Below are positions 40,733 through 63,592 of a stretch of 64,000 bases of DNA, one piece after another. Every line of letters begins with the position of its first letter. Positions within the stretch are counted from its first letter, which is position 1. Under the pieces are notes generated by a model. The model ran no database searches. It saw only the letters and a list, made by a program, of their open reading frames with translations, and was not told where the DNA came from. The position numbers and the translations under genes were made by a program. This stretch comes from an uncultured Candidatus Saccharibacteria bacterium (GTDB taxonomy: Bacteria; Patescibacteriota; Minisyncoccia; Minisyncoccales; Staskawiczbacteraceae), in assembly GCA_964599285.1 (NCBI GenBank), contig CAZREI010000001.1:34562-98561 (forward strand), given 5' to 3'.

Positions 40733-40817
40733 CTCCTTAGAAACCCACGGTTTCTAACGTGTCCGCTTCGCGGCACTGTTTTCCTTCACGGGGAAATACC
40801 CAATTTCCCCGACCCCC
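40733..40817. ncRNA. candidate structured motif, copy 1 (three hairpins)
   Basis: 29 nt are identical to copy 2 (gctccttagaaacccacggtttctaacgt), followed by a variable hairpin and then a conserved 41-nt segment with a covarying 8-bp stem. Confidence 0.35.
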
Positions 40818-40854
40818 TTTGTACGGTTTTGGATTGTCCTGCCTCAAAGAGTTG

Positions 40855-41916
40855 CTATCCCAACAACCGTATTACCACTCCTATGATAGCTAATACAATT
40901 CCAACAATCCAAAACCGCATCGTAACCTTGTATGCTGGCCAGCCTATGGCTTCAAAGTGATGGTGGATGGGTGTGGATTGGAATATTTTTTTGTGGCGAA
41001 ATTTTTTGGATAAAAGTTGGATAATCACTGACAGAACTTCTATCACCAAAAGACCGGCAATGATGGGCAAGACAAAAACGGAATCTGTCAAAAACGCTAC
41101 GACCGACAACGTGGTAGCAAGCCCGACCGTTCCCACTTCTGACATGTAAAACCGAGCCGGCGGAATGTTAAACCACAAAAAAGAAAAAAGCGTTCCCGTA
41201 ATGACCGCGCAGAAAGTTGCCAAATCCACCTTGCCCTGCGAGAAAGCAATAATGGTAAAGGCGCCAAAAATAGAAGCAAAAACGCCGCCAGACAATCCGT
41301 CTAACCCGTCAATGATGCCTCCGGACCAGGTAGCAATCATCACGATAATAAAAACCGGAATATAAAAAATTCCCAAAGAAATATGTCCCAATAACGGAAT
41401 GCTGATTACGTCAAATCCGAGTTTTGCATAAAACCACCAACCACCTACCAATCCAATCAGCGCTACTATCAAAAGGCGTTTTTTAAAAGACAATCCCCCG
41501 CCAACATAACCACCCAGCGACGATACTACCAGCATATCGTCTAAGAGCCCCGCCAATGAAGCGACTATCAACGTAAACAACGGAAGCCAGGTTTGGCTTC
41601 TTGATAAAAAATTCAGATTTGCAAACCAAGTATTAGGAAACAGGAAAGAAATAATATAAAAAAAGAAAATAACCGCTACCGTGGTGATGCAAATTAAAAG
41701 TCCTCCCATGCGCGGCGCCTTGGTTTCACGCTCTTTATGAAGACTGTTAAATACTACAGCTTCTTCTCCGCTGATAGCTTTTTTTCCAGCCTGTTTTTTC
41801 CAGAGCTTATGCTTATACAAAAAATGTATTAAAAAAGGACACCAGGCAATGGCGATGATAGAAGCGGCGGCCGAAACCCCCAAAACCTTAATTACATAAA
41901 ACGTAAGAAGTGTCAT
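40855..41916 (-). CDS. mraY: phospho-N-acetylmuramoyl-pentapeptide transferase
   Basis: Multi-TM protein with 'GLLDDMLVV', 'IIDGLDGLSGG' and 'TPIHHHFE'. Confidence 0.9.
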   Translation of the reverse strand: MTLLTFYVIKVLGVSAAASIIAIAWCPFLIHFLYKHKLWKKQAGKKAISGEEAVVFNSLHKERETKAPRMGGLLICITTVAVIFFFYIISFLFPNTWFANLNFLSRSQTWLPLFTLIVASLAGLLDDMLVVSSLGGYVGGGLSFKKRLLIVALIGLVGGWWFYAKLGFDVISIPLLGHISLGIFYIPVFIIVMIATWSGGIIDGLDGLSGGVFASIFGAFTIIAFSQGKVDLATFCAVITGTLFSFLWFNIPPARFYMSEVGTVGLATTLSVVAFLTDSVFVLPIIAGLLVIEVLSVIIQLLSKKFRHKKIFQSTPIHHHFEAIGWPAYKVTMRFWIVGIVLAIIGVVIRLLG

Positions 41917-41923
41917 TAAACTT

Positions 41924-42097
41924 GGCTACGAAATACGAATTTTTTACGAATATACGGAAACGCTTCGCTTCTCCACGAATTACGAAACGAGTACGAATAT
42001 ACGAACGTGAACCTATGACTCATTTTCGTATATTCGTAAGATTTCGTATTTCGTAGCCCGTTTTGGTATATTCGTAAAAAATTCGTATTTCGTAGCG
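41924..42097. repeat. family D double-length hairpin cluster, copy 5
   Basis: 'gctacgaaatacgaattttttacgaatatacgg...cgtatattcgtaagatttcgtatttcgtagc' plus 'ggtatattcgtaaaaaattcgtatttcgtagcga'. It starts 8 nt upstream of the mraY ATG. Confidence 0.85.
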
Positions 42098-42100
42098 ATA

Positions 42101-43102
42101 TCACCAGGTGTAGGCTTTCCCAACCCAGTCAACCAGTTCCTGCATTTGGCCGAAGCGGTCTTCGGTTCCAAGAACAATATAAATAATATCATCTCCCTGT
42201 TTTTGGTTTTGTTGGACCACCATAAAACATCCCAGCGCCTTGTCGGTCCATCCGGTTTTGCCGCCGATGATATTATCCGTTCCCAGTAATTTGTTGGTGT
42301 TGACCAGAACGTGATGAAGTGTGCCATCGTCCAAATATAACGAATGCTCCTTTTGGCTGACAATTTCCCGAAAGAGCGGATAATTTTCAAACAAGTATCC
42401 TGATAATACGGCCAAGTCTTTGGCACTGGAATGAGACGCGACGTCCAGACCGGCTGGATCGCTAAAATGGGTTTGAGTCAATCCCAAATTTTTGGCTTGC
42501 TCGTTCATGGCTGACACAAAAGCGTCAGTACCCATCACTTCCGAAAGCGCAAAAGCGGCTCGATTGCTGGATTCCATTAAGGTAATGTATAAAAGGTTTT
42601 TTACCGAAAGTGTTTGGCCAAGTTGCAAGCTTCCCTGTTCACCCTCTTGTGCCATCGCCGCTGAATCTATGGTAATTTTTTTGCCCAAGTCAAGATTTTG
42701 CATCACCGCCAGCGCTGTCATCAGCTTGGTCAAACTGGCAACCGGCAAACGTATTTGAGCATTTTTTTGAAATAATATTTTGGAAGGTTGGTTGCCAATT
42801 TCAACTGCAATAGCTGAAGGCGCGTCAAGCGCCAAGTCTTCCACTTGCCAATTGCGAGTGGGCTTGGTGTCTGGATTAGCCAGTGGTTTAACCGCAGGAC
42901 TGTCCGATGGCAAAGGTTTTTGAATGTTAGCTGATACGTTTTCAATAGGCGCGGGCAAACTTGCGGTAAAAAATCCCTTGTGACTAAAAGTCCAATTGCT
43001 CGCGTTGGTCGCAAGCCACTGGACTGAAGTAACCAGCAGCGAAGCCAAAACCAAACATTTAAAAAATACTACGGCTTGTTTTGCGATGTATACCCTGTTC
43101 AT
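42101..43102 (-). CDS. D-alanyl-D-alanine carboxypeptidase (S11 PBP)
   Basis: 'ASLTKLMT' (SxxK), 'MESSNRAA' (SxN) and 'GGKTGWT' (KTG). Confidence 0.85.
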   Translation of the reverse strand: MNRVYIAKQAVVFFKCLVLASLLVTSVQWLATNASNWTFSHKGFFTASLPAPIENVSANIQKPLPSDSPAVKPLANPDTKPTRNWQVEDLALDAPSAIAVEIGNQPSKILFQKNAQIRLPVASLTKLMTALAVMQNLDLGKKITIDSAAMAQEGEQGSLQLGQTLSVKNLLYITLMESSNRAAFALSEVMGTDAFVSAMNEQAKNLGLTQTHFSDPAGLDVASHSSAKDLAVLSGYLFENYPLFREIVSQKEHSLYLDDGTLHHVLVNTNKLLGTDNIIGGKTGWTDKALGCFMVVQQNQKQGDDIIYIVLGTEDRFGQMQELVDWVGKAYTW

Positions 43103-44580
43103 TTTTTATGTTTACCGTGAATGTTTGCTTTTTTTGTGGCAAGTGTTTTGTGGCCAGGAGCTGGATGCTTTTGTATTTGAATATGTAATTCCTTCAATTG
43201 CTCCGGATAAATTTCCGATGGAGCCTGCATCATCAAGTCTCGTCCATCACCGGTTTTAGGAAAAGCAATCACTTCGCGGATATTGGGTTCGCCCAATAAT
43301 AATGCCACAATCCTATCAATGCCGCTACCAATTCCTCCGTGCGGCGGCGCGCCAAAGGTGTAAGCTTCCACCATATGACCAAACTTTTCCTTGATTTCTT
43401 GTTTGCCATACCCCATAATTTCAAACACCGCCTCAATGGCTTCAGGCGTATTGTTGCGGATGCTGCCTCCGCCGATTTCCCAACCATTGAGCACAATATC
43501 ATACTGGCTGGTCAATATATTGGCGATGTTTTTTTTGGCTAATAAATCTTGCATAAACTCCGGCTTGGGCGCGGAAAAAGGGTTGTGGGTGAATGTCCAC
43601 TTTCCGTCATCGCCTTGCTTGCCCTGAGCCGGTTCGACGGGTTCAAAAAAGGGAAAGTCAACAACCCAGCAAAATGCCAAAAGATTTGGATCGTTTTTAT
43701 CAGTGCGAAGATCTGGCTTGTCCGATTGATATTTTTCCATTGCTTCCTGATAGCTCAATCGTGGAAACGGAATCTGTTGGATTTTTTTTTCGGGAAAAAG
43801 AGTTTGGACCAGCGCGATGAGCATCCGTTCGTACAGTTCTATAAAATCATCCCGTTCAATGAAGCTCATTTCCACGTCAATTTGAGTGTGCTCGGTTTGC
43901 CGATCCCCCCGCGGATCTTCGTCGCGCAGGCATCGAGCCAACTGAAAATATTTTTCAATCCCCGCTACCATCAGCAGTTGCTTGTACTGTTGCGGGCTTT
44001 GCGGGAGCGCGTAAAACATCCCCGCGTGCAGGCGGCTTGGCACCACAAAATCTCGCGAGCCTTCCGGAGTTGACTTGGTTAATGTTGGAGTTTCAATTTC
44101 CACAAAACCTTCCTGGGCAAAAAACGCGCGCGCAAAGTTAGTCACTTTTTGTCGCATAATAAGATTGCGCTGTAACCGCGGTCGGCGCAAATCCAAGTAG
44201 CGATATTTCATGCGTATCTCCTCGTTAATTTCCATGCCATCGGTGCTTACATCAAAAGGCAATGTTTGCGCTTTTGCCAAAACCGCCAAGCTTTCCACAG
44301 CCATTTCCACACCACCGGTTTCAATAGCGGTATTGACCATTTTTTCCGGCCGCTTAATAATCTGGCCAACAAGCTCCACCACCCATTCGCTACGTACGTC
44401 CTGCGAAGTGGCGTAAGCCTCTGCGTTTTGCGGCACCAGCACGCACTGCAAAACCCCCGACTTGTCGCGCAAATCAATAAAAACAATCTTGCCATGGGCA
44501 CGGCGCACACTGACCCATCCGGCCACCTTCACTTTTTCGCCCACATGTTTTGCCGCCTCACTGATTAGAAATCTAGGCAT
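43099..44580 (-). CDS. aspS: aspartyl-tRNA synthetase, bacterial-type core without the GAD insertion domain
   Basis: 'FYALPQSPQQYKQLLMVAGIEKYFQLARCLRDEDPRGDRQTEHTQID', 'GGGSIR' and 'PPHGGIGSGIDR'. Only 493 aa. Confidence 0.9.
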   Translation of the reverse strand: MPRFLISEAAKHVGEKVKVAGWVSVRRAHGKIVFIDLRDKSGVLQCVLVPQNAEAYATSQDVRSEWVVELVGQIIKRPEKMVNTAIETGGVEMAVESLAVLAKAQTLPFDVSTDGMEINEEIRMKYRYLDLRRPRLQRNLIMRQKVTNFARAFFAQEGFVEIETPTLTKSTPEGSRDFVVPSRLHAGMFYALPQSPQQYKQLLMVAGIEKYFQLARCLRDEDPRGDRQTEHTQIDVEMSFIERDDFIELYERMLIALVQTLFPEKKIQQIPFPRLSYQEAMEKYQSDKPDLRTDKNDPNLLAFCWVVDFPFFEPVEPAQGKQGDDGKWTFTHNPFSAPKPEFMQDLLAKKNIANILTSQYDIVLNGWEIGGGSIRNNTPEAIEAVFEIMGYGKQEIKEKFGHMVEAYTFGAPPHGGIGSGIDRIVALLLGEPNIREVIAFPKTGDGRDLMMQAPSEIYPEQLKELHIQIQKHPAPGHKTLATKKANIHGKHKK

Positions 44581-44635
44581 AATTTTTTATTATTTTACAG
44601 ATTCAAAAGGTTTATATTTCGTTTCAACTTTATTT

Positions 44636-45199
44636 TTACGAATTTTCTGCTACTTTTTTAATTAATGCCTCCAACATCTCTAATGTTCCCTGCTTCTGCG
44701 CCAAATCTCTAACCCGCTCTAAATCAACTTCTGAAATAGCCAACACTGATTCTATATCTTCAAGCTGTCGAGTTGATTCCGTCATTTTGTGCCACAAAAG
44801 CTTGCTTAAAATTAAATCTTCAGGACAAACAAAATTAATCTTATAACCATAAAAATCTTTGGCAACCGCTCGTTTTAATTCTTGTTCATTAAAATAATCT
44901 TTAACAATCCAAAAATCTGCTTTTAGTCCGGTGTTTGGATCAACAAAATTAAATTCTCCCTTTTGTTTTAACGCTTGCCCCATGGCTTCTTTCGAAACAT
45001 ACACATCTTTATCGAATTGTAATAATTCTCTAGCCAAGGTACCAATATCTTTTGGAGTAAATTCAACGATGATATCAACGTCTGCGGTATGACGCACCCT
45101 TCCCCAAACAGAAACTGCCATTCCACCCGTTATAGCATAAGGTATTTTTAACCGGTCTAATATTTTAGCTATTTTTATGAGAAAGGCCGTTATTTCCAT
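44636..45199 (-). CDS. minimal nucleotidyltransferase-fold protein
   Basis: 'IPYAITGGMAVSVWGRVRHTADVDIIV' fits the GGx(9-13)DxD NTase signature. Confidence 0.55.
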   Translation of the reverse strand: MEITAFLIKIAKILDRLKIPYAITGGMAVSVWGRVRHTADVDIIVEFTPKDIGTLARELLQFDKDVYVSKEAMGQALKQKGEFNFVDPNTGLKADFWIVKDYFNEQELKRAVAKDFYGYKINFVCPEDLILSKLLWHKMTESTRQLEDIESVLAISEVDLERVRDLAQKQGTLEMLEALIKKVAENS

Positions 45200-45347
45200 G
45201 CTTTTTCCTATCGTTTAACGAGTTTAACGTTTTACCAAGCTCAAAAAGCTGACCTACCATGCTAATCTTTTGGGCTGCGGTCATTTTCTTAAAAATTTCA
45301 TCCTGCATTTTCTGAGCCATCTTTGGAGTTACTATTTGTTTTTTCAT
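45165..45347 (-). CDS. small helical protein upstream of the NTase gene (possible partner)
   Basis: 60-aa ORF overlapping the NTase start by 35 nt. No motif recognised. Confidence 0.3.
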   Translation of the reverse strand: MKKQIVTPKMAQKMQDEIFKKMTAAQKISMVGQLFELGKTLNSLNDRKKHGNNGLSHKNS

Positions 45348-45350
45348 TAT

Positions 45351-46529
45351 TTATTTCAACTTTATTTTTATAAATTTTCGTTTGCCCGCCTGCACCACCA
45401 TTTCATTTTCCAACGCTACCTCTTCTTTCCAGTTGGTAATTTTTATTTCCGAATTAATGGTCACCGCGCCACCGTCCACCAGCCGGCGGGCTTCATTTTT
45501 TGAGGGAGCCAAATTACTATCGCACAATAAATCTAAAATCGGGTAACTGGTTTTTGATGTTTCAAAAATTTCTATTTCGCTAGGCGTTTCGTGCCGGCGA
45601 AACACTTTATCGAAATTTTCTGTTGCCTCTCTAGCGGCTTTTTCTCCGTGGTACATTTTTACAATCTCGCTTGCCAGACGCGCTTTTTGATCGCGCGGGT
45701 TTGGTATTTTTTTAATTTCTTGTAAATCTAAATTCGTGCAAAGTTCAACATAATCACCAATCAATTCATCCTTTATAGACATAATTTTTCCGTACATATT
45801 TTCAGGAGTATCGGTAAGGTAAATCGCGTTATCATACGTTTTACTCATTTTACGCCCATCGGTGCCCAGCAACAGTTTTGTGGTTAAAATATCTTTGTCT
45901 TTATGATGGTATATTTTTTGCAAGGTTCTGCCACAAAGCATGTTAAACATTTGGTCGTTTCCGCCAATCTCCACATCAACGTCCATGGCCACCGAATCGT
46001 ACCCTTGCATTAACGGGTACATAAATTCAGTTTGGTTTATCGGAGTATTTTCTTTCATGCGCTTATCAAACATGTCCCGATGCAACATTTGCTGAACGGT
46101 AAAATGGCTGGATAATGTTAGAATATCTTCCCACCGTAATTTTGAAAGCCAAGCGGAATTATACTTTATTTTTACGTTGGAAAAATTTAAAACTTTGGAA
46201 GCCTGCTTTTTATAATTTTTAAAATTTTCTTTGATTTGCTTATCAGAAAGCGGTAAGCGCATGGCATCGCGGCCAGAAGGATCCCCAATTTTTGCGGTAA
46301 AATCTCCGATTAACAAAATAACTTCATGTCCCAGTTCCACAAATTCTTGTAGTTTTTTCAAAACAACCGCATGCCCCAAATGCAACAAAGACCCCGTAGG
46401 ATCAATGCCGTAATATACCCTAAGCCGCTTGCCCGAAAGCAGCTTTTTTCCCAAGTCCTGTCGCACAATAACTTCGCTCACTCCCCTGCTCAACACGCCT
46501 TCAATTTTTTGCTGGTCAATGTTTACCAT
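45351..46529 (-). CDS. tyrS: tyrosyl-tRNA synthetase
   Basis: 'GIDPTGSLLHLGHAVVLKKL' (HIGH), 'KMSKT' and the C-terminal S4-like 'SKNEARRLVDGGAVTIN'. The start was trimmed to ATG 46529. Confidence 0.9.
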   Translation of the reverse strand: MVNIDQQKIEGVLSRGVSEVIVRQDLGKKLLSGKRLRVYYGIDPTGSLLHLGHAVVLKKLQEFVELGHEVILLIGDFTAKIGDPSGRDAMRLPLSDKQIKENFKNYKKQASKVLNFSNVKIKYNSAWLSKLRWEDILTLSSHFTVQQMLHRDMFDKRMKENTPINQTEFMYPLMQGYDSVAMDVDVEIGGNDQMFNMLCGRTLQKIYHHKDKDILTTKLLLGTDGRKMSKTYDNAIYLTDTPENMYGKIMSIKDELIGDYVELCTNLDLQEIKKIPNPRDQKARLASEIVKMYHGEKAAREATENFDKVFRRHETPSEIEIFETSKTSYPILDLLCDSNLAPSKNEARRLVDGGAVTINSEIKITNWKEEVALENEMVVQAGKRKFIKIKLK

Positions 46530-46566
46530 GAGTTTATTATACTGATTTGCCAATAAAATAAAACTA

Positions 46567-46594
46567 TTGACAATAACTCTCAACATAGTAAGAT
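46567..46594 (+). promoter_or_regulatory. candidate promoter for the small Cys-rich ORF
   Basis: TTGACA (46567-46572), a 16-nt spacer, then TAAGAT (46589-46594). Confidence 0.35.
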
Positions 46595-46660
46595 GGGTGC
46601 GAGTAGGATGGCAGAATGGTTTTGCCAAAAACTCAATGTGTCCTTTGACAAGGGATTGGT

Positions 46661-46855
46661 ATGAACATCAGTGAAAACGGGTTCGGGAAGAATTTTTGTA
46701 GAGGCAACTGCGGCAAAGAACTGCCAAGAGGCCAGTTCTACTGCCCGACTTGCCATGGCAAGATAGGTTCAAAGCCGCTTTCAAAAGTGGCTATCCTGAT
46801 GATGCGGTGCAAACCGAAAGGCAAACGTTGTCCGGCAAAGAGTCCGCCGGAATAG
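46661..46855 (+). CDS. small Cys-rich (zinc-ribbon-like) protein
   Basis: 'CRGNCGKELPRGQFYCPTCHGK', bracketed by a candidate promoter and a terminator. Confidence 0.4.
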   Translation: MNISENGFGKNFCRGNCGKELPRGQFYCPTCHGKIGSKPLSKVAILMMRCKPKGKRCPAKSPPE

Positions 46856-46877
46856 TAAAATCACAAAACCACGAATG

Positions 46878-46907
46878 CGGCAAAGCTGATGCTTTGCCGT
46901 CTTTTTT
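46878..46907 (+). terminator. rho-independent terminator
   Basis: cggcaaagc-tgat-gctttgccg followed by tcttttttt. Confidence 0.65.
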
Positions 46908-48232: not shown

Positions 48233-48294
48233 ATTTTTCTGTCCAGACGCGAGCGAGGCCGGCTTTGCCGGATCGCCCGTCTCGGGAAAAATTT

Positions 48295-48376
48295 CTTACG
48301 AATTACGAATTTGGCCGAATTACGAATGTACGAATTCGCCGTATTCGTAATTCGCTTAAATTCGTAATTCGTAGGA
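48295..48376. repeat. family D-type hairpin, copy 6
   Basis: 'cttacgaattacgaatttggccgaattacgaatgtacgaattcgccgtattcgtaattcgcttaaattcgtaattcgtagga'. Confidence 0.8.
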
Positions 48377-49048: not shown

Positions 49049-49159
49049 GCGTTCAGCTTATCAAAAAAACTTTTTGGTTTCACTATTGACATATACTTCT
49101 AACGTGCTACCGTTAAAGTAGTATTGGAACCACTTGGCAATTCAAATTAAGGAGAAGTT

Positions 49160-49516: not shown

Positions 49517-49540
49517 GTCTTGCGAGGAATTTCGTAAGAC

Positions 49541-49569
49541 AAAGCTCGAATCCCGGTTCGAGCTTTTTT
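49541..49569 (+). terminator. rho-independent terminator
   Basis: aaagctcgaa-tcccgg-ttcgagcttt followed by tttg. Confidence 0.65.
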
Positions 49570-49589
49570 GTTCTTTTAAACATGGTACT

Positions 49590-50424: not shown

Positions 50425-50431
50425 CACACGC

Positions 50432-50998: not shown

Positions 50999-51010
50999 TT
51001 TAAAATTTAA

Positions 51011-51043: not shown

Positions 51044-51054
51044 AGTTTAGGTTT

Positions 51055-54488: not shown

Positions 54489-54494
54489 TATTGT

Positions 54495-54639: not shown

Positions 54640-54649
54640 GCAAGGAATT

Positions 54650-55042: not shown

Positions 55043-55047
55043 TTCTT

Positions 55048-55668: not shown

Positions 55669-55688
55669 TTATTATATCACAAGCCCTT

Positions 55689-55848
55689 TGTCATTGCGAG
55701 ACGGCGCGCCCTCGGGCGCGCCGTTTTGGTAACTCTCGCCACCGTCATTGCGAGTCCCGACCGCAGACCCGCTAAGCGGGCCCGCAGTCGGAGACGCGGC
55801 AATCCAGTCATCACAAAAAGATTGCTTCGCTGCGGCTCGCAATGACGG
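55689..55848. repeat. cluster of three family C elements (one containing a GC palindrome at 55701-55724)
   Basis: 'tgtcattgcgagacggcgcgccctcgggcgcgccgt', 'ccgtcattgcgagtcccgaccgcag...gacgcggcaatcc' and 'gattgcttcgctgcggctcgcaatgacgg'. Confidence 0.8.
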
Positions 55849-55887
55849 CATGCGGTAAGGTTTGTTTCACCGGTCAAACGTCAAATG

Positions 55888-58800
55888 TCACTTGTTAACG
55901 GTATTTAGAGCCGCCAGTGTGGCCGGTCCCACGTTGCCGGTTTGGCGAATGTTTTTTGATTTCTGAAAAAGTTTTACGGCTTGTGTGGTGGCTTGTCCGT
56001 AGTAACCATTGGGAATCGCGGTTAAAAATCCCAACTTTACCAAAAGCTGTTGAAGATTCAAAACGTCGGGACCACGGTCGGTCGGGCCAAGGTAGCGAGT
56101 CAAGGACGTGCTTAAGATTGCTTCGCTGTGGCTCGCAATGACGGGTGACATGACCGTAACTTGGGCAACCGCTCGAGCCTCATGGCCATAGGAATCTTTG
56201 GCAAAGACGGTGATGGTGTGCGTTCCAATATCATGTTGAGTCGGAGTCCAGGTAAAGATGCCCAAGGCATTGATGTTGGCGTTGGTGATACTGGTGGCCA
56301 CGGCAGGCGCGGGCGGCGTGGACTGCTTATTCTCACGAATAAGCAGTCCGTTGAGAACGTCTTTGGTTTTGGGGCCCACGTTTCCGGTTTGGCGGATGTT
56401 TCGAGATTGCTGGAAAAGTTTTACGGCAGTGATGGTTGATGGACCGTAGTTTCCGTTTGGTTGGATGTTTGATGGAAAGAAACCTTGCTGGTGCAACCAT
56501 TGTTGCAGTGCTAAGACATCGGGGCCGTGATCGCCCGGACCAAGGTAGCGGGAGAGCAACGCGCTTTGCGGAGGCACAGTGACGGGTGGCAAAGACACTA
56601 CCGGAGTTGATGGAGTAAACTGGTCGCTTAAAGAATACAACGGGTTGGTGGCAAAACCTTGTGGGTAAGCCTTGAGCGTAACCTGATTACCCGCGGCAAC
56701 GGATTGCTTTGAGTTGGAAAGCGAGAGGCTGAACTGAGAGCCGATCCAGCCGATGCCGCCACCCCCGCCACCTCCACCGGACGGAGTTGGTGTGGGCGTT
56801 GGCGAAGCCGCGGCCGGCGTGGTAGCAGAAGATTCGTTGGATGGATTTCCGATGCCAACAGAATTGATAGCAGAAACTCGGTAGTTGTATTGGGTGCTGG
56901 CAGTCAGGCCGGTATTGGAATAGGTGGTTGCAGTCGTCCCGGTATCGGCCACCAAAACAGCAAATCCGTTGCCAACCGGAGATTCTCTTTCTATTTTGTA
57001 ACCAGTAACCGTTCCTGAAGGCGCCGTCCAAGATAAATCAATCTGGCTGGTAGAAATAGCCGTAGCTGATAAATTAGTTGGAGCATCAGGAATAAATAGC
57101 TGCCAACGAAGATATGGGTAGCCATCGTTGCGCGCCAATGCGCTATCGATGTTCCAAATAGTGGCAAAGTCCCAAGGTTGTGATCCGCCTTGAGCATAAA
57201 CGGCATGAGTAGTTGCTCCCTTGAAAACAGTGGCACCGGCGGGTTCCAGAGTGCCTTGCCCGTTGTCGTGAGCGGAGTCAGTGAAGAAGGAGTTGGTGAT
57301 GGTGGGAATTACATTAGTGTTGCCTATTAAACCACCTACGTTACCTGTACCAGAAACGGTACCGTTAGCATAAGAGTTAGTGATGACAACTAAATTAGCG
57401 AAAGAAATTCCCACTAACCCGCCTATGTTACCGTCGCCAGAAACATTACCGGTAGCATAAGAATTGACAATGGTAGTGGGACCATACGCGCCCGCCATGA
57501 GCCCACCGCTATCAAATCCCGTCCCAAGAACACTTACATTCCCCGTGGCATACGAGTTGGTGATGGTAAGGGTGCCATCTGAGTCACCCACCAAGCCGCC
57601 AGTGTAGATACCGGTTACATTTCCGGTAGCATAGGATTTATCAACAATGAGGATGCCATCCATGTCACCGACTAATCCGCCGATACCATACGATGAATCA
57701 TCGCTGCTTGTGTTGGCAGTAGAGTAAGATTGGGTGATAGTAGTGATTCGGTCATATGGACTAAAATCGTCTTCCACGTATCCCACCAAGCCTCCAATAG
57801 CAAAAGCATTAGTAGGAACTCCGGTTACGCTTCCCGTAGACCAGCAGTTGGTGATGGTTGAAGTGCCAGATGACCAGCCGACAAGTGCGCCAACTTCATA
57901 ACTGCCACTTATGTTAGCTGATTCCACACCAACATTTTGAATGGTAGCATTGTTAATGAAACCAAAAAGCCCAATGGCTTCCACGCCGCTAGTGTTGATG
58001 AATAAGTTAGTGACTTTGTGTCCTTGGCCATTCAGTGATCCTGTGAAGGGAGTGAAGGTGTTATCAAAATCTCCCACGGGGATGAATCCCGCGCCGGAAT
58101 TCCAGTTGACGGTGTCGGAACAGTCAATGTCTCGGTCTAAAATAAAATAGGAAGAAAGCCAGTTATTCATTTCTTGGAGTTGGGTGCAGGAAGTGATTAC
58201 ATACGGATCATTTTGGGTGCCAGAACCCGAGCCGAAAAAAGAGCCTCGTGTAGTAAAATTCAACTCATCACCATACGCGTATCCCTGCGAATTGTGAGCA
58301 TAAGCCCTAAAATAATATGTGGTACTTGAGACGAGGCCAGTTAGGGAAGAGGAGAATGAAATGGCACCAAATGGACCATTGGCATCTTCCGTAAACGTGT
58401 CGTAGCCCGAAGAACCTGGCGCAGTGTTACCAGGATCTGATGGGAAGCTGGTGGTGCCATACACAAATCCTCGCTTGTCGGCATCTTCGCCGCCGGTATC
58501 GGTGATGGTGCCATGGACATCGGCGGCTGTAATGCCAATATTGTCGGAGGAATCGGTGGTAACTACCGGCTGAGAATTGGAAAAGATCCAGCCGGTGTTG
58601 TTGTCTGGGTCGGTGATGGAGTTTGCTCCGGCATACCATTGGGCGCCACCCGTCGCAGCGGAGTCTTGCAAATCAAGGTAGTCGCAATGAACAACGCCCG
58701 ATGGTTTGGACAAGGTATGACGAACTCCGTTGGTGGATGATCGAATGGTAATAATATTTCCTGGACTCCCGGCACAAGTGAACGTGCCATTGATGGTTTG

Positions 58801-61425
58801 AGTGAGAGAGGAGGGGAAGGCAATAGATTCAGGGGCGCCGATGGTAAAATTAGCGAACGTGTTTGCTGAAGAGAAAATTGATGACCCATTTGCTCCTGAA
58901 ATTACGACTGAGGTAGGATAGAATCCTCCAATAGTTCCATTAAAACTGATGAGACCAGAAGAAGTAATGGTGAACACGGGAGTAGTTCCGTTGGCTCGAT
59001 CAACAGAATCAGAAAAGGTAATATTACCATTTCCTGTATCAATGGTAGAATTAGTCGGTATTTGAACTGGACTATTGAATAGCACTGACTGATTCGAGGT
59101 AGTTACATTAGCGTTAAGAAAAGTAAATCCACTGCTAAAAGTAAATGCCCCACTGCCGGAAGCGGTTTGATTTCCATTAAGGAAAATGAAATTTTGAGCA
59201 ATAAAATGAATCGATGTATCCCAAGAGGAATAACTATTTAATGTTATCGTATCTGTTTTTGAGTTGTCACCGATGGTTAGGTCAGTGTAGTTAAGATAAC
59301 CCAGTGTCGTGCTATCAAGTTGCAAAGTTCCCGTTCCGCCGGCTACTCCCACGGTGGTGCTGGCAGTGTAAGGGGCGATCGTCAGTGACGAAACGCTGTT
59401 GATGTCATTGGCTTGGGCAAGGTTGATGGTATCTGTATTAACCGTGATGGTGCCAGTGCCGCTGGTTTGCAGGCCACCAGATATGCCCACTTGGATACCG
59501 TAGTTAGAACTATCACCACCGCCGCGAATACCAATAATAGACAAGTTACCAGACCCTGTAGTTTTGATAGTACTGTTAGTATTAAAAATTGAAATTCCAA
59601 CATTGTCACTACCTGTTCCAGCTCCGCCGCCCGTAGCAGTGATACTCAGATTACCATCAGCCGTAGAAATAGCGCCGCCACTTCTCACAGTTACACCATA
59701 ATTGCTATCGCCATTACCGCTGCCAGTGCCTCCGCCATTACCGATAATACTTAAACTTCCTGATCCGGTATTGCTCATAAGAGCATTGGTACCGGAGACT
59801 TTAACACCATAATTAGCATTACTGGCATCATCACTGCCTCCAGTACCGGTGATAGTCATCGCGCCTCCCGAACCGGTAATAGAACTGCCATCGTTGACGT
59901 AAATACCATAATTACCAAATCCACCACCCGACCCGCTACCACCAGTCCCCGTAACCGAGAGGGTTCCGGTGCCGGTTGTTTGAATACAATGAGAAACCTG
60001 ACACTCAACTCCATCATTAGAATTGCCTGAACCATCAGAATCTCCGCCAATACCCGAAACTGAAAGATTGCCCGAACCGGTAGTTTTAATAGTGCTATTA
60101 GTATTTGCAATCAAAACACCATAACTAGTACTGCCCGTCCCCGCACCACCGCCATTACCGGTAGCAGTTAAATTCCCATCAACCGTAGAAACAATTGCAC
60201 CGCCTCCCATTTGCAAGCCATAGTCTTGGCTACTATCACCAGTTCCCATTCCATTGGCGGTTACAACAAGGGTGCCTGATCCGCTATTATTGATAGCGGC
60301 GGTGCTGCCCGAAATGCGAATGCCGGCATTACTACTGCCGCTGCTATTGCCGCCAGTACCCGTGATAGTCATCGCGCCTCCTGAAGCATTAATAGAACCG
60401 GCCACAAAAATGCCATTGTTACTGCCTCCACTGCTGGTACTGCCGGTTCCTGTAACTGAAATAGCACCAGTACCGGTTGCTTGAATACAATTAACTACAT
60501 TGCAATATACTCCATAATTGCTCCCGCTACTCCCGCTGGGATTGCCCCCGGTTCCGGTAATTGAAATATTCCCCGAACCCGTGCTTTCAATGGTGCTATT
60601 GGTTCCAGTAATATAAACGCCATAGTTATTAGCGCCTGACCCTGCTCCTCCGCCGGTACTATTATTGATGGTAAGATTGCCATTCTCTGCAGAAATACTG
60701 CCACCGGCCGCGACTCGCAAACCATAATCACTATTGCTATTGCTGGTACCATTTCCATTACCCGTGATGGAAATGGTACCCGAACCAGTAGTAGTGATAT
60801 GGCCGTCAAGACCAACGCCTATATTGTTATTGGTAGTAGTGGCAAAACCTTGTCCATTAGCTATGACATTGCCTCCGCCAGCGGTTATTGTCCCTGAAAT
60901 ATAAATACCAATCGGCTGACCAGAATTTCCTATGGCAAACCCGGCACCCGTATCAATAGTACCGCTGCCCCCTCCTACAGTAACATTCCCTCCATTAGAT
61001 GTAATCGTACTATCAATCAGTACATAGCCGGAAGAGTCGGCATCTCTATCCGCATTCAATAAAATGTTAAGTTTGTTGGATGTAGAGGAAATATTTGCAC
61101 CAATATTGAGTATAATATTACTATCAGCGTAGAAACTTGCAGTCGCATCAGTTCCGGAAGATTTGGTAAAGGCATTGTTGACGGTGATGCTGCCTCCGCT
61201 GGCGGTAAAGCTCACACTCGTGCTTGCATTAAGTTGGGTTTGGATATCAGTAACATTGACGACGCAATCACTACCGCTGGTCGCCCAATCCGGACTGCCG
61301 GTGCAAGTAGTAGAAGAACTACTGATAGTAAGGTTGGCAGCTTGGGCGAATACCGGCAGGAACACAAAAAACACGGTAAGAATGAGTGACAGGAGAAAAA
61401 TGTTTTTTACATTACATTTTAACAT
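55888..61425 (-). CDS. giant surface protein: Gly/Ser/Thr-rich tandem repeats, GLUG-motif repeats, FN3, Ig-like and two PG-binding domains
   Basis: Signal peptide. ~140-aa repeats 'TGSGNLS..G.GG...'. 'GGLVG' occurs 6 times. '[21 protein letters not shown]...GYKIERE' is FN3. There are two 'LG.GD.GPDVL.LQ..L...GF......G.YG..T..AVK.FQ....I..TG.VGP.T' domains. Confidence 0.85.
56116..56144. repeat. family C element embedded in frame in the giant gene
   Basis: 'gattgcttcgctgtggctcgcaatgacgg' differs by 1 nt from the intergenic copies at 55820-55848 and 30560-30587. It translates as '[10 protein letters not shown]'. Confidence 0.85.
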
Positions 61426-61538
61426 AGTGCTAATGTGAAATTCGAAATTTTTGCAGACATATTCTTAAATTATACCACGATTTTGCGAGCCATTACCATC
61501 TCTTTTTTGTGGATAAATATCTGGTCAAAATAAAATCA

Positions 61539-61560
61539 GCGCGGCCCCGCGGGGCCGCGC
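61539..61560 (-). terminator. perfect 22-nt GC palindrome, likely prmC terminator
   Basis: gcgcggccccg|cggggccgcgc is flanked by an A-run and a T-run. Confidence 0.6.
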
Positions 61561-61584
61561 CTATTTATTTTGTGAAGAGCTAAG

Positions 61585-62364
61585 CTAATCACAAATAATC
61601 ACGTACCTAAATTTACCGTACTGGTCTTTGCGAAATTCCCAGTGATTGTAACCGTATTTTTTTAATAATTTTTCTATGCCAGGTTTTTGCGGCGGGTCAA
61701 ACTCCATGTATATTTTTCCGTTTTGGTTTAGGAAATTTTTGGCTTCGGCCAAAAATTTCCTGATGTAAAACAATCCATCCTTTCCACCAAACAAAGCCAT
61801 TTTGGGTTCGTATTGTAAAACTGATTTTTGTATGTTATTTTTTTGTGTCGTTGGAATATACGGCGGATTGGCAAAAATGTAATCATACCTGCCTTTTATA
61901 TTACTAAAAACATCTGATTGAACGACATGATGCCTTTTCTTATTATCTATTCGCTTATTCGTACGAATAAGCGAATAGTTTATTTTTATATTTATTTTTA
62001 TCTGTTCTAAAAAGTTTTTTTCTTTTTCCACAAACGTTAGAGTCGCGTTTTTAATCTGTCGCATAATAGAAACACCAATGCACCCGGACCCGGCAAACAT
62101 ATCTAAAACTCGTATACTACGTTTTTCACGGCCGTTAAAATCAGAGTATATGTCTTCCGTGGCTTTTTGGACCCAATATTCCGTTTCCGGCCGAGGAATC
62201 AAAGGCTTTTTCGACAAATCAATTTTGCATCCTAAAAATTCAGTAAAGCCAATAACATAATCCACCGGCTCCCCCATTTTCAGGCGCCTAACATCTTGTT
62301 GAAATTTTGCAGTTGGCTTTCCCTGATATTTCTCTTTCAAAAGCCATGAGATTTCTTTTTGCAT
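61585..62364 (-). CDS. prmC: release-factor glutamine N5-methyltransferase
   Basis: 'VLDMFAGSGCIGVS' (SAM motif) and 'IFANPPYIP' (NPPY). Confidence 0.85.
   Translation of the reverse strand: MQKEISWLLKEKYQGKPTAKFQQDVRRLKMGEPVDYVIGFTEFLGCKIDLSKKPLIPRPETEYWVQKATEDIYSDFNGREKRSIRVLDMFAGSGCIGVSIMRQIKNATLTFVEKEKNFLEQIKINIKINYSLIRTNKRIDNKKRHHVVQSDVFSNIKGRYDYIFANPPYIPTTQKNNIQKSVLQYEPKMALFGGKDGLFYIRKFLAEAKNFLNQNGKIYMEFDPPQKPGIEKLLKKYGYNHWEFRKDQYGKFRYVIICD
61947..61978. repeat. perfect 32-nt palindrome embedded in frame in prmC
   Basis: ctattcgcttattcgt|acgaataagcgaatag, built of ATTCGT/ACGAAT words, translates as 'YSLIRTNKRID'. Confidence 0.8.
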
Positions 62365-62384
62365 GTTTTTTTATTCTTGCATAA

Positions 62385-62413
62385 ATAAAAAAAAGACCCA
62401 AATTACTTTGGGT
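62385..62413 (-). terminator. rho-independent terminator after pyrB
   Basis: The minus strand reads gacccaaagtaatttgggtc followed by ttttttttatt. Confidence 0.65.
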
Positions 62414-62429
62414 CACCAACCGTTAGGTT

Positions 62430-63404
62430 CTATTCTTTTGGAGCAAGGATTATCCGAAGCAAAGCCATCCGCACTGATAGCCCATTGGCTACTTGTCGAA
62501 AATAAGCGGCTCGTGGGTCGGCGTCAACTTCGGGCGCGATTTCATCCACCCTGGGCAACGGATGCATAATGATGGCATCTTTTTTCATGCGCTCAAGCAC
62601 CTTGCCATCAACGGTAAAGTATCCGAGTTTCCGGTCGTTGCTCTTAAAATTACTTCCGCGCTCTTTTTGGACTCTGGTCTGGTAGATCACATCTATCTCC
62701 GGCGCTACGTCCAAAATGCTCGTTGATTCGGAAAACACAATGCCTCGACGCTCCAAGTATGCTTTAATGTCCGGCTTCATTTGAGCACATGTTGGCGAGA
62801 CAAAATCAATGTGCACACCTTCGAACTTACCCAAGTTGTAGCAAAGCGAACGCACGACCCTACTTTTTTCCAAATCACCCACCATGGCAATGCGTAAATT
62901 ATCGATGCGACCCAACTCTTTTTGGATAGTAAAAATGTCCAGCAATGCCTGCGTGGGATGCTGCTGTTTGCCATCCCCCGCATTGATGATAGGAACACTG
63001 GAAACTTTGGCCGCTTCTTTGGACGCATCATCTTGGTGATGGCGCAAAACGATGACGTTAGGCTTATACTGGCAAAGAACCTGTATGGTATCGGTAAGAA
63101 TTTCGCCCTTTGCCGCCGAAGAAAACAGCCCGGCGTTTTCGGTGGAAAACATAGTTTGTCCACCAAGCCTAAGCATTGCGGCAGAAAATGATGCCCTGGT
63201 ACGAGTACTTTCTTCGTAAAATAACTGAACCATGGTTTGATGTTCCAGAAGAGTTCTTACCCATTTTAATTCAACTCGTTCTTGCATCGTATTAGCTCTG
63301 TCCATCAATATCGCTTCCCGAAAAAATGGGCCCTCAATCCATTCTCGAGAAAACTGCTGTGCTTCCAGGATGTGAGGAAAACCAGGAAATCGTTCGGAGA
63401 TCAT
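62430..63404 (-). CDS. pyrB: aspartate carbamoyltransferase catalytic subunit
   Basis: 'ESTRTRASF', 'HPTQALLD' and 'HPLPRVDEI'. SD AAGGAG lies 8 nt before ATG 63404, so the ORF-track TTG start was trimmed. Confidence 0.9.
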   Translation of the reverse strand: MISERFPGFPHILEAQQFSREWIEGPFFREAILMDRANTMQERVELKWVRTLLEHQTMVQLFYEESTRTRASFSAAMLRLGGQTMFSTENAGLFSSAAKGEILTDTIQVLCQYKPNVIVLRHHQDDASKEAAKVSSVPIINAGDGKQQHPTQALLDIFTIQKELGRIDNLRIAMVGDLEKSRVVRSLCYNLGKFEGVHIDFVSPTCAQMKPDIKAYLERRGIVFSESTSILDVAPEIDVIYQTRVQKERGSNFKSNDRKLGYFTVDGKVLERMKKDAIIMHPLPRVDEIAPEVDADPRAAYFRQVANGLSVRMALLRIILAPKE

Positions 63405-63474
63405 TACCCTGCTCCTTGTTGTTAAGGTGCGACCACTCAAAAAATCCGCAACGTCACTCGCCTTTTTTGGGCGA

Positions 63475-63592
63475 GCTCCTTAGAAACCCACGGTTTCTAA
63501 CGTCTCTGTGCTCATGAGAATTTTTTGCTAAAAATTCTCATGAGCACAGGACTGTTTTCCTCCACGGGAAGATACCCAATCTTCCCGACCCC
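63475..63592. ncRNA. candidate structured motif, copy 2 (pyrB upstream region)
   Basis: Same conserved flanks as 40733-40817. The variable middle hairpin is expanded to a 19-bp stem (ctgtgctcatgagaatttt/aaaattctcatgagcacag). Confidence 0.35.

Follow-up and report, generated by a model that had tools for sequence, protein, structure and literature searches.

Two look-alike stretches in a 64-kb window, the whole length of DNA analyzed here, represent a small insertion element that is widespread in Patescibacteria (CPR bacteria) and had not been catalogued before. The best reading of this element, to which we give about an even chance, is a non-autonomous mobile structured repeat whose propagation requires its fold; it is possibly a ribozyme or other functional RNA. 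The core spans ~95 nt and, with optional modules, reaches up to ~250 nt. More than 140 copies were gathered from Patescibacteria genomes and metagenomes, comprising 18 genome loci (17 titled as Patescibacteria lineages) and at least 120 metagenome loci. A covariance-model search of 596 kb produced 105 matches, with two to three copies on several contigs, and the window itself contains three. No matching family was detected in Rfam 15, in line with the initial annotation's candidate novel element, and no copy was found in phage, plasmid, and IMG/VR collections.

The initial annotation described two copies, and the sequences at 40733-40818 and 63475-63592 match its description. They share an identical 29-nt 5' part, GCTCCTTAGAAACCCACGGTTTCTAACGT, the hairpin TTAGAAACC-CAC-GGTTTCTAA, and the joint ACTGTTTTCCTYCAC (in summary form, CTGTTTTCCTYCAC), while their middle hairpins are non-homologous (7 bp with a bulge in copy 1 versus ~20 bp in copy 2). 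The 8-bp stem, GGGGAAAT-ACCCA-ATTTCCCC versus GGGAAGAT-ACCCA-ATCTTCCC, differs at two compensated pairs and is followed by GACCCC. Chance is excluded for the shared hairpin and joint, since their 24-nt and 18-nt patterns each had ~0 matches expected in shuffles, and predicted folds of the + strand agree with the described hairpins (z = -4.6 and -9.3). The element proved larger than described, including (C)GTCGCTTCGCTCC at its 5' end and, at its 3' end, CCCCTTTG or CCCATCTT as a tail in covariation with the stem; copies 1 and 2 are each enclosed by host-derived inverted repeats in their flanks, 40716-40725 with 40823-40832 for copy 1 and 63439-63451 with 63626-63638 for copy 2. The count of two also gave way, to a third, circularly permuted copy in the window, with permuted relatives at loci L027, L079, and L123, and to the copies found elsewhere.

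Table 1. Features of the three element copies in the window and of their flanks.
Feature	Position	Strand	Remark
Copy 1, 5' terminal joint CGCTTCGCTCC	40726..40736	+	Boundary from copies tightly enclosed by flanking inverted repeats; opposite strand reads GGAGCGAAGCG, with a GCGAAGC mini-hairpin motif that recurs family-wide
Copy 1, P2 hairpin TTAGAAACC-CAC-GGTTTCTAA	40737..40757	+	Near-invariant across family
Copy 1, P3 variable hairpin GTGTCCGC-TTC-GCGGCAC	40759..40776	+	With the following UGUUUU, resembles an intrinsic terminator on the + strand
Copy 1, conserved joint J3/4 CTGTTTTCCTTCAC	40776..40789	+	
Copy 1, P4 homopurine/homopyrimidine hairpin GGGGAAAT-ACCCA-ATTTCCCC	40790..40810	+	
Copy 1, linker GAC and third-strand tail CCCCTTTG(T)	40811..40822	+	Tail parallel-complementary to purine arm GGGGAAAT
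Copy 1, flanking host-derived repeat CCAAAACCGT	40716..40725	+	P1: pairs with 40823-40832, enclosing the element
Copy 1, inverted copy ACGGTTTTGG of the left flank's end	40823..40832	+	
Copy 1, diverged direct duplicate of the mraY 3' end (40853-40905)	40672..40722	+	~71% identity
Copy 2, 5' extension: CGTCA, hairpin CTCGCC-TTTTTTG-GGCGAG, CTCC	63452..63479	+	Homologous to GTCGCTCGCC...GCTCGCTC extension in metagenome copies
Copy 2, P2 hairpin	63480..63500	+	
Copy 2, P3 (20-bp hairpin), then ACUGUUUUCC	63505..63550	+	Terminator-like on + strand
Copy 2, joint CTGTTTTCCTCCAC	63552..63565	+	
Copy 2, P4 GGGAAGAT-ACCCA-ATCTTCCC	63566..63586	+	
Copy 2, linker GAC and tail CCCATCTT	63587..63597	+	Tail tracks stem: G6 to C; A instead of T at the A4 position
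Bidirectional terminator hairpin AAAAAAGCAGCT-TTAAT-AGCTGCTTTTTT	63598..63628	+	Between copy 2 tail and rplU
Left arm AAAAAATCCGCAA of old rplU terminator hairpin	63439..63451	+	
Right arm TTGCGGATTTTTT of interrupted rplU terminator hairpin	63626..63638	+	
Copy 3, diverged and circularly permuted	~5631..5752	-	Covariance-model match, 31.8 bits, E = 2e-6
Copy 3, flank CCCAGCAGGACTC	5752-5740	-	First part in minus-strand order
Copy 3, P4 3' arm CAAATCACCCC	5720-5710	-	
Copy 3, GAC and tail	5709-5701	-	
Copy 3, P2 TTAAAAACC-CTC-GGTTTTTAA	5698-5678	-	
Copy 3, joint TATTTTCCTACAC	5677-5665	-	
Copy 3, P4 5' arm GGGGTGATTTG	5664-5654	-	
Copy 3, tRNA-like GGTTCGAGTCCTGCTGGGAATAG	5653-5631	-	Last part in minus-strand order

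On the strand used in the initial annotation, the fold consists of the 9-bp, sequence-invariant hairpin P2, an optional P3, a 14-nt pyrimidine joint, and P4. P2 is near-invariant in 16/17 genome matches, which were chosen by the element's other end, and P3 is replaceable or missing across the family. Among 64 distinct family stems of P4, 94.9% of cells are paired, one arm stays purine, and positions 1-6 vary only by GC-to-AU transitions in either direction. The motif is indeed structured, as first proposed, its joints being conserved and its stems either covarying or replaceable, and covariation gained massive support once more than 100 relatives were added.

The 6-8 nt following the GA(C) linker run parallel to the P4 purine arm and are altered whenever the stem alters. 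The resulting three-way covariation of purine arm, pyrimidine arm, and tail is as strong as Watson-Crick covariation. At positions 3-6, purine arm and tail matched in 87.9% of cases versus 71.1 ± 1.4 in shuffles, with 63 versus 28 ± 5 double changes and a covariation of 0.582 versus 0.315, a value reached by 0/500 shuffles; slid registers matched in at most 71%. The third strand carries C at G-C pairs (362/372) and at C-G pairs (70/80), T at A-T pairs (195/264), and G at T-A pairs (10/22), with a permutation z of ~10. In the pyrimidine motif, the textbook choices at such mismatches are G opposite T-A and C opposite C-G. The adjacent strand appears to read the P4 hairpin a third time, in a triple helix, and the covariation predicts an intramolecular triplex of R-Y-Y architecture, or its purine-motif equivalent on the complementary strand. 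Evidence on which strand folds conflicts: G.U counts and third-strand rules at inverted pairs point to the + strand, while A.C mismatches in P4, GNA triloops and GCGAAGC mini-hairpins, and how often A stands at A-T pairs point to the other.

That the element is an insertion is shown by an empty orthologous site. Copy 2 is located in the loop of the old rplU terminator hairpin, with ~175 nt between the arms; locus L142 has the same rplU-pyrB synteny with a spacer of just 88 nt and a plain rplU terminator, AAACCCGCCAATTTGGCGGGTTTTTTGA, at the corresponding place. Typically, 13-73 nt of host sequence are directly duplicated beside the element, as seen in at least 29/110 copies, and a short inverted copy of this stretch is also present. 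Together these duplicates enclose the element, and the interrupted gene or tRNA is often intact. In 29/110 copies the flanks carry direct repeats of 11 nt or more, against a null 95th percentile of 10. Duplicated sequences include the dnaX and rnhA 5' ends, tRNA 3' ends, and the mraY 3' end, whose duplicate beside copy 1 is a target duplication flanking the element; L039 has an identical layout, with the mraY 3' end as a 50-nt exact repeat. Of 14 copies adjacent to a tRNA, 11 have the tRNA's last 14-20 nt, a stretch reaching from the 3' strand of the T-stem to just beyond the discriminator, directly repeated at the insert's far side; such copies show an intact tRNA, fixed orientation, and tandem accretion. 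Arrays of the form tRNA[A]-terminator-a-X-A-terminator-a-E-A occur at L032 and L040. Some flanking duplications could be structure-provoked rearrangements outside insertion proper, and the 63-nt flanking repeat at L027 may be an assembly artefact.

The element has no fixed gene partner, as its neighbors are mutually unrelated housekeeping genes that include those for L15, S14, L27, EF-Tu, NusG, GroEL, and tRNAs. Counting against the mobile reading, neither 400 neighboring ORFs across the family nor the genes beside the window copies included a transposase, an integrase, or any other recurrent protein. The element also lacks terminal inverted repeats and a target duplication of fixed length, so it cannot be matched to any known transposition chemistry. 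The proposal of a functional RNA rather than a simple repeat stands only in part: the covarying fold is real, but the empty site, the duplicated host flanks, and the occurrence in both orientations and in arrays largely amount to a MITE-like multi-site repeat.

We regard as tentative the alternative that one strand of the element yields a functional structured RNA, either a self-cleaving ribozyme of a new class or a module for RNA processing or stability that punctuates operon and tRNA transcripts. The triple helix would then be part of an active or protective fold, and the element's dispersal would be secondary, as for hammerhead and twister ribozymes riding on repeats. Consistent with this are the conserved single-stranded joints, covarying or replaceable stems and covarying tertiary contact, the optional P1 and P3, and circular permutations that retain all parts. 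Joints and P2 are near-identical across very distant Patescibacteria lineages, a core identity unusual for selfish repeats and more typical of RNAs working with conserved machinery. Stable loop types, optional expansion modules at fixed positions, and circular permutation also speak against a mobile repeat and are classic signatures of functional RNAs, especially self-cleaving ribozymes. Between copies 1 and 2, which share one genome, the fully compensated stem and tail changes suggest selection on individual copies. Copies inside ribosomal-protein operons and tRNA clusters must be transcribed, P3 is shaped by transcription context (it is weaker when co-directional with neighboring genes, median -3.5 versus -8.3 kcal/mol, p = 0.0035), and G at T-A and C at C-G obey pyrimidine-motif rules on the + strand. 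However, no ribozyme or other family in Rfam matched even at E = 10, and a promoter was not evident. Within ribosomal-protein operons the element is found in both orientations, which means that the mRNA does not always contain the same strand. In P4, G.U pairs are very infrequent whichever strand is read, 3-6 consecutive C+.G-C triples are unfavorable at neutral pH, and the purine-motif triplex, as the alternative, is not known to be stable in RNA. The duplications and inversions of flanking host sequence are, moreover, DNA-level events.

A host-serving DNA structural element of the REP/BIME type is unlikely. P2 would then be a palindromic protein-binding site, and P4 with its mirror repeat a cruciform or H-DNA tract that absorbs supercoils, or alternatively a mark for gyrase or nucleoid-protein sites beside highly transcribed genes; the element would also insulate neighboring transcription units. 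P2 is indeed a perfect 9-3-9 palindrome that is conserved in sequence rather than covarying, and the homopurine mirror repeat is a classical H-DNA motif. Copies are found at gene ends and next to terminators, tRNAs, tuf, groEL, and genes for ribosomal proteins, and the flanking host repeats alternate in orientation with two linker kinds, as in BIMEs. Nevertheless, three-way covariation with a hairpin arm on the same strand argues for folding within one strand and not for duplex H-DNA. The element is also far larger and more complex than REPs, whose families are genus-specific while its core is near-invariant across Patescibacteria, and what genes small genomes contain may account for the apparent enrichment near highly expressed ones.

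The initial annotation's suggestion that copy 2 is a cis-regulatory leader of pyrB, as a riboswitch or protein-binding leader, is highly improbable and already contradicted by the element's distribution: the pyrB start at 63404 (giving a protein 100% identical to one database entry) does place copy 2 71-188 nt upstream on the coding minus strand, close to the distance first given, with an SD-like GGAGG and an AAGGAG that abuts the hairpin, but pyrB has its own SD 8 nt ahead of the ATG, model search or inspection by eye found no element at the pyrB relatives L140 and L142 (the latter despite its shared rplU-pyrB arrangement) or in the pyrB upstream spacer of L144, the remaining window copies lie after mraY and in an unrelated spacer, and genes beside family members are unrelated.

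Among known systems, REP/BIME and RAYT-associated REPIN sequences are likewise multi-copy, intergenic, hairpin-forming, and found in both orientations, often right after stop codons or at terminators, and they form clusters of a repeated unit whose orientation alternates, with two linker kinds. The element opens with (C)GTCGC, which is reminiscent of the CGTC head reported for one REP superfamily (PMC3733652). REPs are 20-40-nt, genus-specific single palindromes, whereas the element is a 95-250-nt multi-hairpin with triple-strand covariation, near-invariant across a whole superphylum, and no RAYT-like gene was seen. The BIME arrangement is also reversed: here it is the linker that is conserved, and the units that alternate come from local host sequence. 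Like MITEs and IS200/IS605-derived PATEs, the element is short, non-coding, and non-autonomous, with insertion polymorphism, secondary structure, possible terminator or promoter side-effects, and insertion sometimes in hairpins. Unlike them, it lacks terminal inverted repeats and similar subterminal hairpins at its ends, its flanking duplication is long, variable, and accompanied by an inverted copy, and a parent IS was not found.

Comparison with tRNA 3'-end integrative elements covered tyrosine-integrase islands, casposons, and the folded single-strand attP of CTX-type phages. The tRNA-end repeat, intact tRNA, fixed orientation, and tandem accretion are shared, and the enclosing inverted pair would fold into a copy of the target duplex, as in a folded attP. 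In contrast, the insert is just ~200 nt and non-coding, uses many tRNA and non-tRNA sites, each with its own repeat, and is not accompanied by an integrase or Cas1-like gene. Small self-cleaving ribozymes (hammerhead, twister, twister-sister, hatchet, pistol) resemble the element in size, in combining conserved junction nucleotides with stems that covary freely, in having optional or closing stems, and in their natural circular permutations and dispersed multi-copy occurrence, sometimes on repeats. The element matches no Rfam ribozyme model in sequence or structure, and none of these ribozymes has a 6-8-layer hairpin-plus-tail triple helix.

With known triplexes, natural and designed (MALAT1/PAN ENE, telomerase and SAM-II/preQ1-II pseudoknots, H-DNA, and the R-loop-Y-loop-Y 'paperclip'), the element shares a homopurine/homopyrimidine helix and a third strand predicted from covariation to lie in the major groove. 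Its order of purine arm, loop, pyrimidine arm, short linker, and pyrimidine strand is exactly the layout of designed intramolecular triplexes, and G opposite T-A and C opposite C-G are as in pyrimidine-motif triplexes. It does not clamp an A-rich tail between U-rich strands, as ENEs do, and its putative 6-8 layers are G-C-dominated, versus 3-5 mostly U.A-U layers in riboswitch and telomerase triplexes. It also differs in being bacterial and multi-copy, and its triplex is predicted from covariation.

Under the preferred reading, a mobile structured repeat, a Patescibacteria-wide family of small non-coding elements would have been put into many unrelated places. The fold may be conserved because it is recognized when the element is copied into new sites, most likely while the nucleic acid is single-stranded, in the loops of hairpins or at replication forks, and probably through a circular or template-switching intermediate. 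The putative copying enzyme would act in trans. Once inserted, the element would be mostly passive, except for P3 with its U-run, flagged as terminator-like, which may act so in one orientation and could thereby account for the ~70% bias against that orientation inside operons and for the loss of P3 from sense copies.

The element, which the initial annotation had described as a two-copy motif, proved to belong to a large family with a third copy in the window itself. Re-reading the window confirmed the anatomy claimed for the first two copies: they share an identical 29-nt 5' segment containing TTAGAAACC-CAC-GGTTTCTAA and a common joint, ACTGTTTTCCTYCAC, their middle hairpins are unrelated, and an 8-bp stem with the loop ACCCA, followed by GACCCC, differs at two positions that are both compensated. 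The number of chance matches expected for the element patterns searched was zero. An exact-pattern scan of species-representative genomes with the 3' half, leaving stem positions free, returned 18 loci, 17 of them titled as Patescibacteria lineages (Staskawiczbacteria, Nealsonbacteria, Parcubacteria, 'Saccharibacteria' MAGs, and 'Patescibacteria group'), while metagenome contigs searched for the 5' hairpin yielded at least 120. Selection of the metagenome set on the 5' end leaves its picture of the 3' half unbiased. We parsed 120 complete copies and built a covariance model from 48 of these; the initial annotation had proposed one from its two copies. The model detected 105 copies in 596 kb of fetched loci (two or three on several contigs), and matched copy 3 in the window at 31.8 bits; a weak match inside pyrB was judged spurious. 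Element density is estimated at only some 15-50 per Mb.

The Rfam scan likewise proposed gave no Rfam 15 family at gathering threshold across the whole window except one tRNA. Copy 2, scanned at E <= 10, returned generic long-hairpin noise far under gathering, 17 related loci matched tRNAs only, and the element matched none of the Rfam self-cleaving classes hammerhead, twister, twister-sister, hatchet, pistol, HDV, and glmS. A phage or plasmid origin was rejected because IMG/VR, phage and plasmid collections held no matches, and literature searches found no account of such an element. The element is real, novel, structured and Patescibacteria-wide.

Taking the + strand of copies 1 and 2 as the forward orientation, the consensus reads (C)GTCGCT(T/C)CGCTC(C), then P2, a hairpin of the form TTAGAAACC-NNC-GGTTTCTAA, a C, the middle hairpin P3, the joint CTGTTTTCCTNNAC, the homopurine/homopyrimidine hairpin P4, a GA(C) linker, and a tail; one example of P4 and tail is GGGGAAAU-ACCCA-AUUUCCCC-GAC-CCCCUUUG. 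Predicted folds of the copies reproduced the three hairpins. The sequence of P2 was almost unvarying, also in the set picked by the element's other end. P3 was absent, reduced to a minimal GCTTCGC, or extended to a hairpin of up to 20 bp, and P4 was free to vary in sequence, loop and length, tolerating large loop insertions and, at one set position in the 3' arm, an additional conserved hairpin. This optional module, (A/G)GGTCGGGA-hairpin-TCTCGCGACCC, was seen at loci L044, L059, L103, L101, and L042, at a fixed point in the pyrimidine arm 3 bp from the P4 base, and left the purine arm and tail uninterrupted.

Several other accounts of the sequence were rejected. A small ORF through the element was discarded, as P3 length varies by 7, 18, 23, and 51 nt, and because these include length changes not divisible by 3 the element is not coding. 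P1 was dismissed as an intrinsic closing stem, since only ~20% of copies have a significant inverted repeat on their flanks, and that repeat comes from the host, and the conserved upstream block CATAGTGGTAATAC was excluded as a genome-wide pre-start-codon motif of its lineage. There are too few G-tracts for a G-quadruplex, and alternative Watson-Crick pairing of the tail fails because the tail is the mirror of the stem arm, not its complement. Long ORF calls traverse the element in some loci (peptide ...RNPRFLT... from the P2 hairpin), giving false N-terminal extensions and an annotation hazard in Patescibacteria genomes.

Coordinates of the element copies and associated features in the window and in compared loci
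Feature	Sequence	Position	Strand
Copy 1, beside the mraY 3' end	Window	40733-40818	+
Copy 2, upstream of pyrB	Window	63475-63592	+
Copy 3	Window	about 5631-5752	-
Duplicate of mraY 3' end	Window	40672-40722	
mraY 3' end	Window	40853-40905	
Spurious model match in pyrB	Window	63081-63171	
160-aa ORF adjoining copy 3	Window	4693-5175	-
1265-aa ORF, ~630 nt downstream of copy 1	Window	36309-40106	-
ATTCGTA(W3) clusters	Window	19729-19799, 31453-31522, 36224-36297, 40622-40650, 41931-42090, 48301-48369	
spc ribosomal-protein operon	L021	1-9102	
Permuted copy in exact direct repeat	L027	1-270	
ORF call through element	L029	4148-6374	
ORF call through element	L113	244-877	
Cassette X	L032	about 3447-3548	+ coordinates

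Across 64 distinct P4 stems, 94.9% of cells were Watson-Crick paired, and positions 1-6 held only G-C and A-U pairs with the purine on the 5' arm, strand flips being absent. The tail is the parallel complement of the purine arm and changes along with it: the arm GGGGAAA is accompanied by the tail CCCCTTT, GGGAGAA by CCCTCTC, GGGGGAA by CCCCCT.., GGAAGGG by CCATCCC, and GGGAAAAA by CCCTTTTT. Compared to kinship-blind shuffles, arm and tail matched more often at positions 3-6 (87.9% vs 71.1 +/- 1.4), had more double-change cells (63 vs 28 +/- 5), and reached a higher covariation score (0.582 vs 0.315, attained by 0/500 shuffles); shifted registers were matched at 71% at most. This arm-tail signal was as strong as the Watson-Crick signal of the P4 stem, 0.605. 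The third base was C for 362 of 372 G-C pairs, T for 195 of 264 A-T pairs, C for 70 of 80 C-G pairs, and G for 10 of 22 T-A pairs. Each sequence was assigned its own linker register, GA or GAC, with GAC in 58/64; the phylogeny-blind permutations of pair against third base used the same register-choice rule, and the arm-tail and stem shuffles ran on the already registered alignment.

Purine arm, loop, pyrimidine arm, 2-3-nt linker and pyrimidine strand follow one another as in an intramolecular R-Y-Y triplex, and the complementary strand would give a purine-motif R.R-Y triplex. Judged from sequence, the element combines the putative components of a triple helix, a homopurine/homopyrimidine helix and a third strand tracking the purine strand, and the three-way covariation of purine arm, pyrimidine arm and tail is consistent with one. 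Dozens of independent stem variants define a base-triple code, and to our knowledge no comparative signal more extensive than this covariation exists for any natural intramolecular triple helix in bacteria. The putative helix differs from the ENE-type RNA triple helix, in which a U-rich internal loop clamps a 3' A-rich tract; here the stem is G/A against C/U with a C/U tail, and the internal loop and A-tract partner are absent.

The locus L142 offers an empty site: its PyrB is 61% identical, and it has the same rplU-pyrB-methyltransferase order as the window and an 88-nt rplU-pyrB spacer with a plain terminator, AAACCCGCCAATTTGGCGGGTTTTTTGA; the corresponding site in the window reads AAAAAATCCGCAA - about 175 nt - TTGCGGATTTTTTGA. 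At copy 2 the loop of the old terminator contains the whole insert, made up of the element, a small hairpin and a new terminator hairpin. Of 110 copies, 29 had flanking direct repeats 11 nt or longer (range 13-73 nt), against a null 95th percentile of 10, usually in the layout direct repeat, element, inverted copy of the repeat's end, spacer or terminator, direct repeat. The flanking repeat was often a gene end (the dnaX 5' end in L087, the rnhA 5' end in L050, and the mraY 3' end in L039), and because the repeat duplicates that end, the host gene stays intact. Copy 1 has the site and layout seen in L039: the mraY 3' end occurs a second time, at 71% identity, and the copy is enclosed by CCAAAACCGT and ACGGTTTTGG.

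A circularly permuted order, P4 3' arm - tail - P2 - joint - P4 5' arm, was found in L027, L079, L123, and copy 3. The permuted copy at the very start of contig L027 is surrounded by a 63-nt exact direct repeat, either a genuine duplication or possibly an artefact of assembly across an insertion polymorphism. Copy 3 carries a tRNA-Leu-like 3'-end fragment with no tRNA gene nearby and adjoins an ORF weakly matching DUF5681 (phage-associated); together these may be the remnant of an older integration. Clustering of 400 ORFs within 3 kb of copies gave housekeeping families only and no other recurrent protein cluster, and a transposase or integrase associated with the element in this neighbourhood was rejected.

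Read in the tRNA sense, copies beside tRNAs have the layout tRNA[...A] - terminator - a - element - A. Here a is antisense T-loop/T-stem/acceptor sequence, and A repeats the tRNA 3' end; in 11 of the 14 tRNA-adjacent copies the match is exact over 14-20 nt, beginning at the T-loop/T-stem border. A tRNA or intron reading was suggested by the T-loop-like GGTTCGAAT, the acceptor-like 3' flank, and the occurrence of group I introns in Patescibacteria tRNAs (PMC13011429); tRNA, tmRNA or tRNA-intron identity was rejected, as ARAGORN finds complete tRNAs adjoining, not interrupted by, the element. What looks tRNA-like is the 3' end of the neighbouring tRNA, duplicated or inverted. A conserved second cassette of ~100 nt, X (CACGAGTTACTAAGTGTGCTCGGGCGAGTACGCCC...CCGCGTTGCGGGTACCCGC), which has no Rfam match, stands in tandem with the element in the L032 and L040 arrays, with the same tRNA-derived inverted and direct repeats on its flanks.

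The element is an insertion with host duplications and without gene specificity, and its footprint, a host duplication plus inverted copy that leaves genes and tRNAs intact, fits no known transposition chemistry. We would give an even chance to the reading of a non-autonomous mobile repeat that needs its fold to propagate, by way of a single-stranded or circular intermediate and a putative enzyme.

Evidence on the active strand points both ways. For the forward strand, P3 G.U pairs number 37 versus 10 on the other strand, P4 loops are GNRA-like, and third-strand choices at inverted pairs obey pyrimidine-motif rules. For the complementary purine-rich strand, P4 A.C mismatches become G.U with the tail following the pyrimidine arm, P3 loops and terminal joints become C-GNA-G triloops or GCGAAGC mini-hairpins, the latter extremely stable in DNA, and A opposite A-T pairs would give allowed T.A-T triples in the antiparallel motif. 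G.U pairs in P4 are rare whichever strand is considered. The element could instead function as RNA, for example as a ribozyme of a new kind or in RNA processing, as its extreme conservation, circular permutations and compensation within individual copies would suggest; we consider this rather unlikely.

About 70% of the nearest ORFs lie on the strand opposite the forward orientation, with the tail a median 30 nt away from a stop codon and P2 a median 78 nt away from a start codon. Three copies lie antisense to that orientation inside the spc operon of L021, and L068 has three within 10 kb whose orientations are mixed, the one between rpsM and rpsK being sense. Given a bias of only ~70% and the mixed L068 copies, a strict orientation rule for transcription or replication was rejected; a promoter inside the element was also rejected, as no sigma-70-like match was found. 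P3 plus CUGUUUU is predicted to be terminator-like on the forward strand, and in copies 1 and 2 it has the G+C-rich hairpin and U-run of an intrinsic terminator, although it is part of the element only and absent from many copies. P3 was weaker where the forward strand is co-directional with the neighbouring gene (median -3.5 vs -8.3 kcal/mol, Mann-Whitney p = 0.0035). Most simply read, copies that terminate transcription are tolerated within operons only when they lie antisense, a selfish-insertion signature and a sign that transcription 'sees' the element.

Other features were observed around the copies. In the Parcubacteria-like contig L021, 0/13 spc operon genes had a Shine-Dalgarno sequence. 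In 5/13, (G/A)TAAT(A/T) or GTATTAC stands some 4-6 nt ahead of the start codon, suggesting that this lineage uses an initiation signal other than SD. A second repeat family in the window forms intergenic clusters in which ATTCGTA(W3) units stand in inverted pairs (23 matches vs 2.3 expected), and its ATTCGTAAA repeats also precede rplE in the unrelated L021. The 1265-aa ORF near copy 1, with internally repeated PKD-domain modules and cysteine-rich spacers, is probably a surface protein.

Known classes of element share some of these properties. Like tyrosine-integrase elements that target tRNAs, the insertions have a tRNA 3'-end direct repeat at both junctions and leave the tRNA intact, but those elements carry an integrase and one cognate att, whereas the inserts are ~200 nt and non-coding, use numerous sites outside tRNAs as well as 11 or more different tRNAs, and had no integrase cluster among the 400 neighbouring ORFs. 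MITEs have terminal inverted repeats and short target duplications of fixed length; the element's ends, GTCGC... and ...CCCCTTTGT, are not inverted repeats, and its duplications vary from 13 to 73 nt. IS200/IS605-derived PATEs have similar subterminal hairpins, no target duplication, and insertion 3' of a fixed tetra- or pentanucleotide, whereas P2 and P4 are unrelated, host duplications exist, and no common junction target word was seen. In integron attC sites, R''(RYYYAAC) precedes R'(GTTRRRY), and cassette arrays lie beside intI/attI; by eye, P2 (GTTAGAA...TTCTAAC) has the reverse order and an imperfect R', and cassette arrays are absent.

A host DNA-structural element of the REP/BIME type appears improbable to us. 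These are high-copy, 20-40-nt imperfect palindromes with a GTAG or CGTC head; the element begins with (C)GTCGC but is at least 95 nt long with three different hairpins, and its estimated density is low. Such repeats also flank a RAYT (Y1 transposase) gene; the 400 ORFs clustered from within 3 kb of copies showed no recurrent family beyond housekeeping ones. The proposal that copy 2 is a leader regulating pyrB is scarcely credible and fails because pyrB relatives lack the element (the model has no match at L140 or L142, and the L144 spacer has no copy by eye), while family neighbours are unrelated genes and tRNAs, with downstream genes as diverse as L15, S14, L27, L33, S7, EF-Tu, NusG, GroEL, L14, S8, and others.

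More tentatively, the element may represent a new functional fold class built around a 6-8-layer major-groove triple helix, serving as a transcript-punctuating ribozyme or a triplex-based ssDNA mobile element. One possible form is a self-cleaving or self-processing ribozyme family that punctuates Patescibacteria transcripts. Another possibility is the first natural mobile element to use an intramolecular ssDNA triplex for recognition and integration, targeting hairpin loops and tRNA T-arms, which, if true, would involve transposition or integration chemistry not previously described. The covariance model can be used to mark elements, which would keep spurious ORFs through them and false gene starts from the duplications out of annotations. 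Patescibacteria (CPR) account for much of bacterial diversity, and their tiny genomes are considered poor in mobile elements. A conserved, multi-copy structured element fills their intergenic spacers, even in ribosomal-protein operons, and was previously uncatalogued; should its fold act as RNA, it would be a candidate for a new ribozyme or processing signal, and should it act as DNA, for a new recombination substrate.
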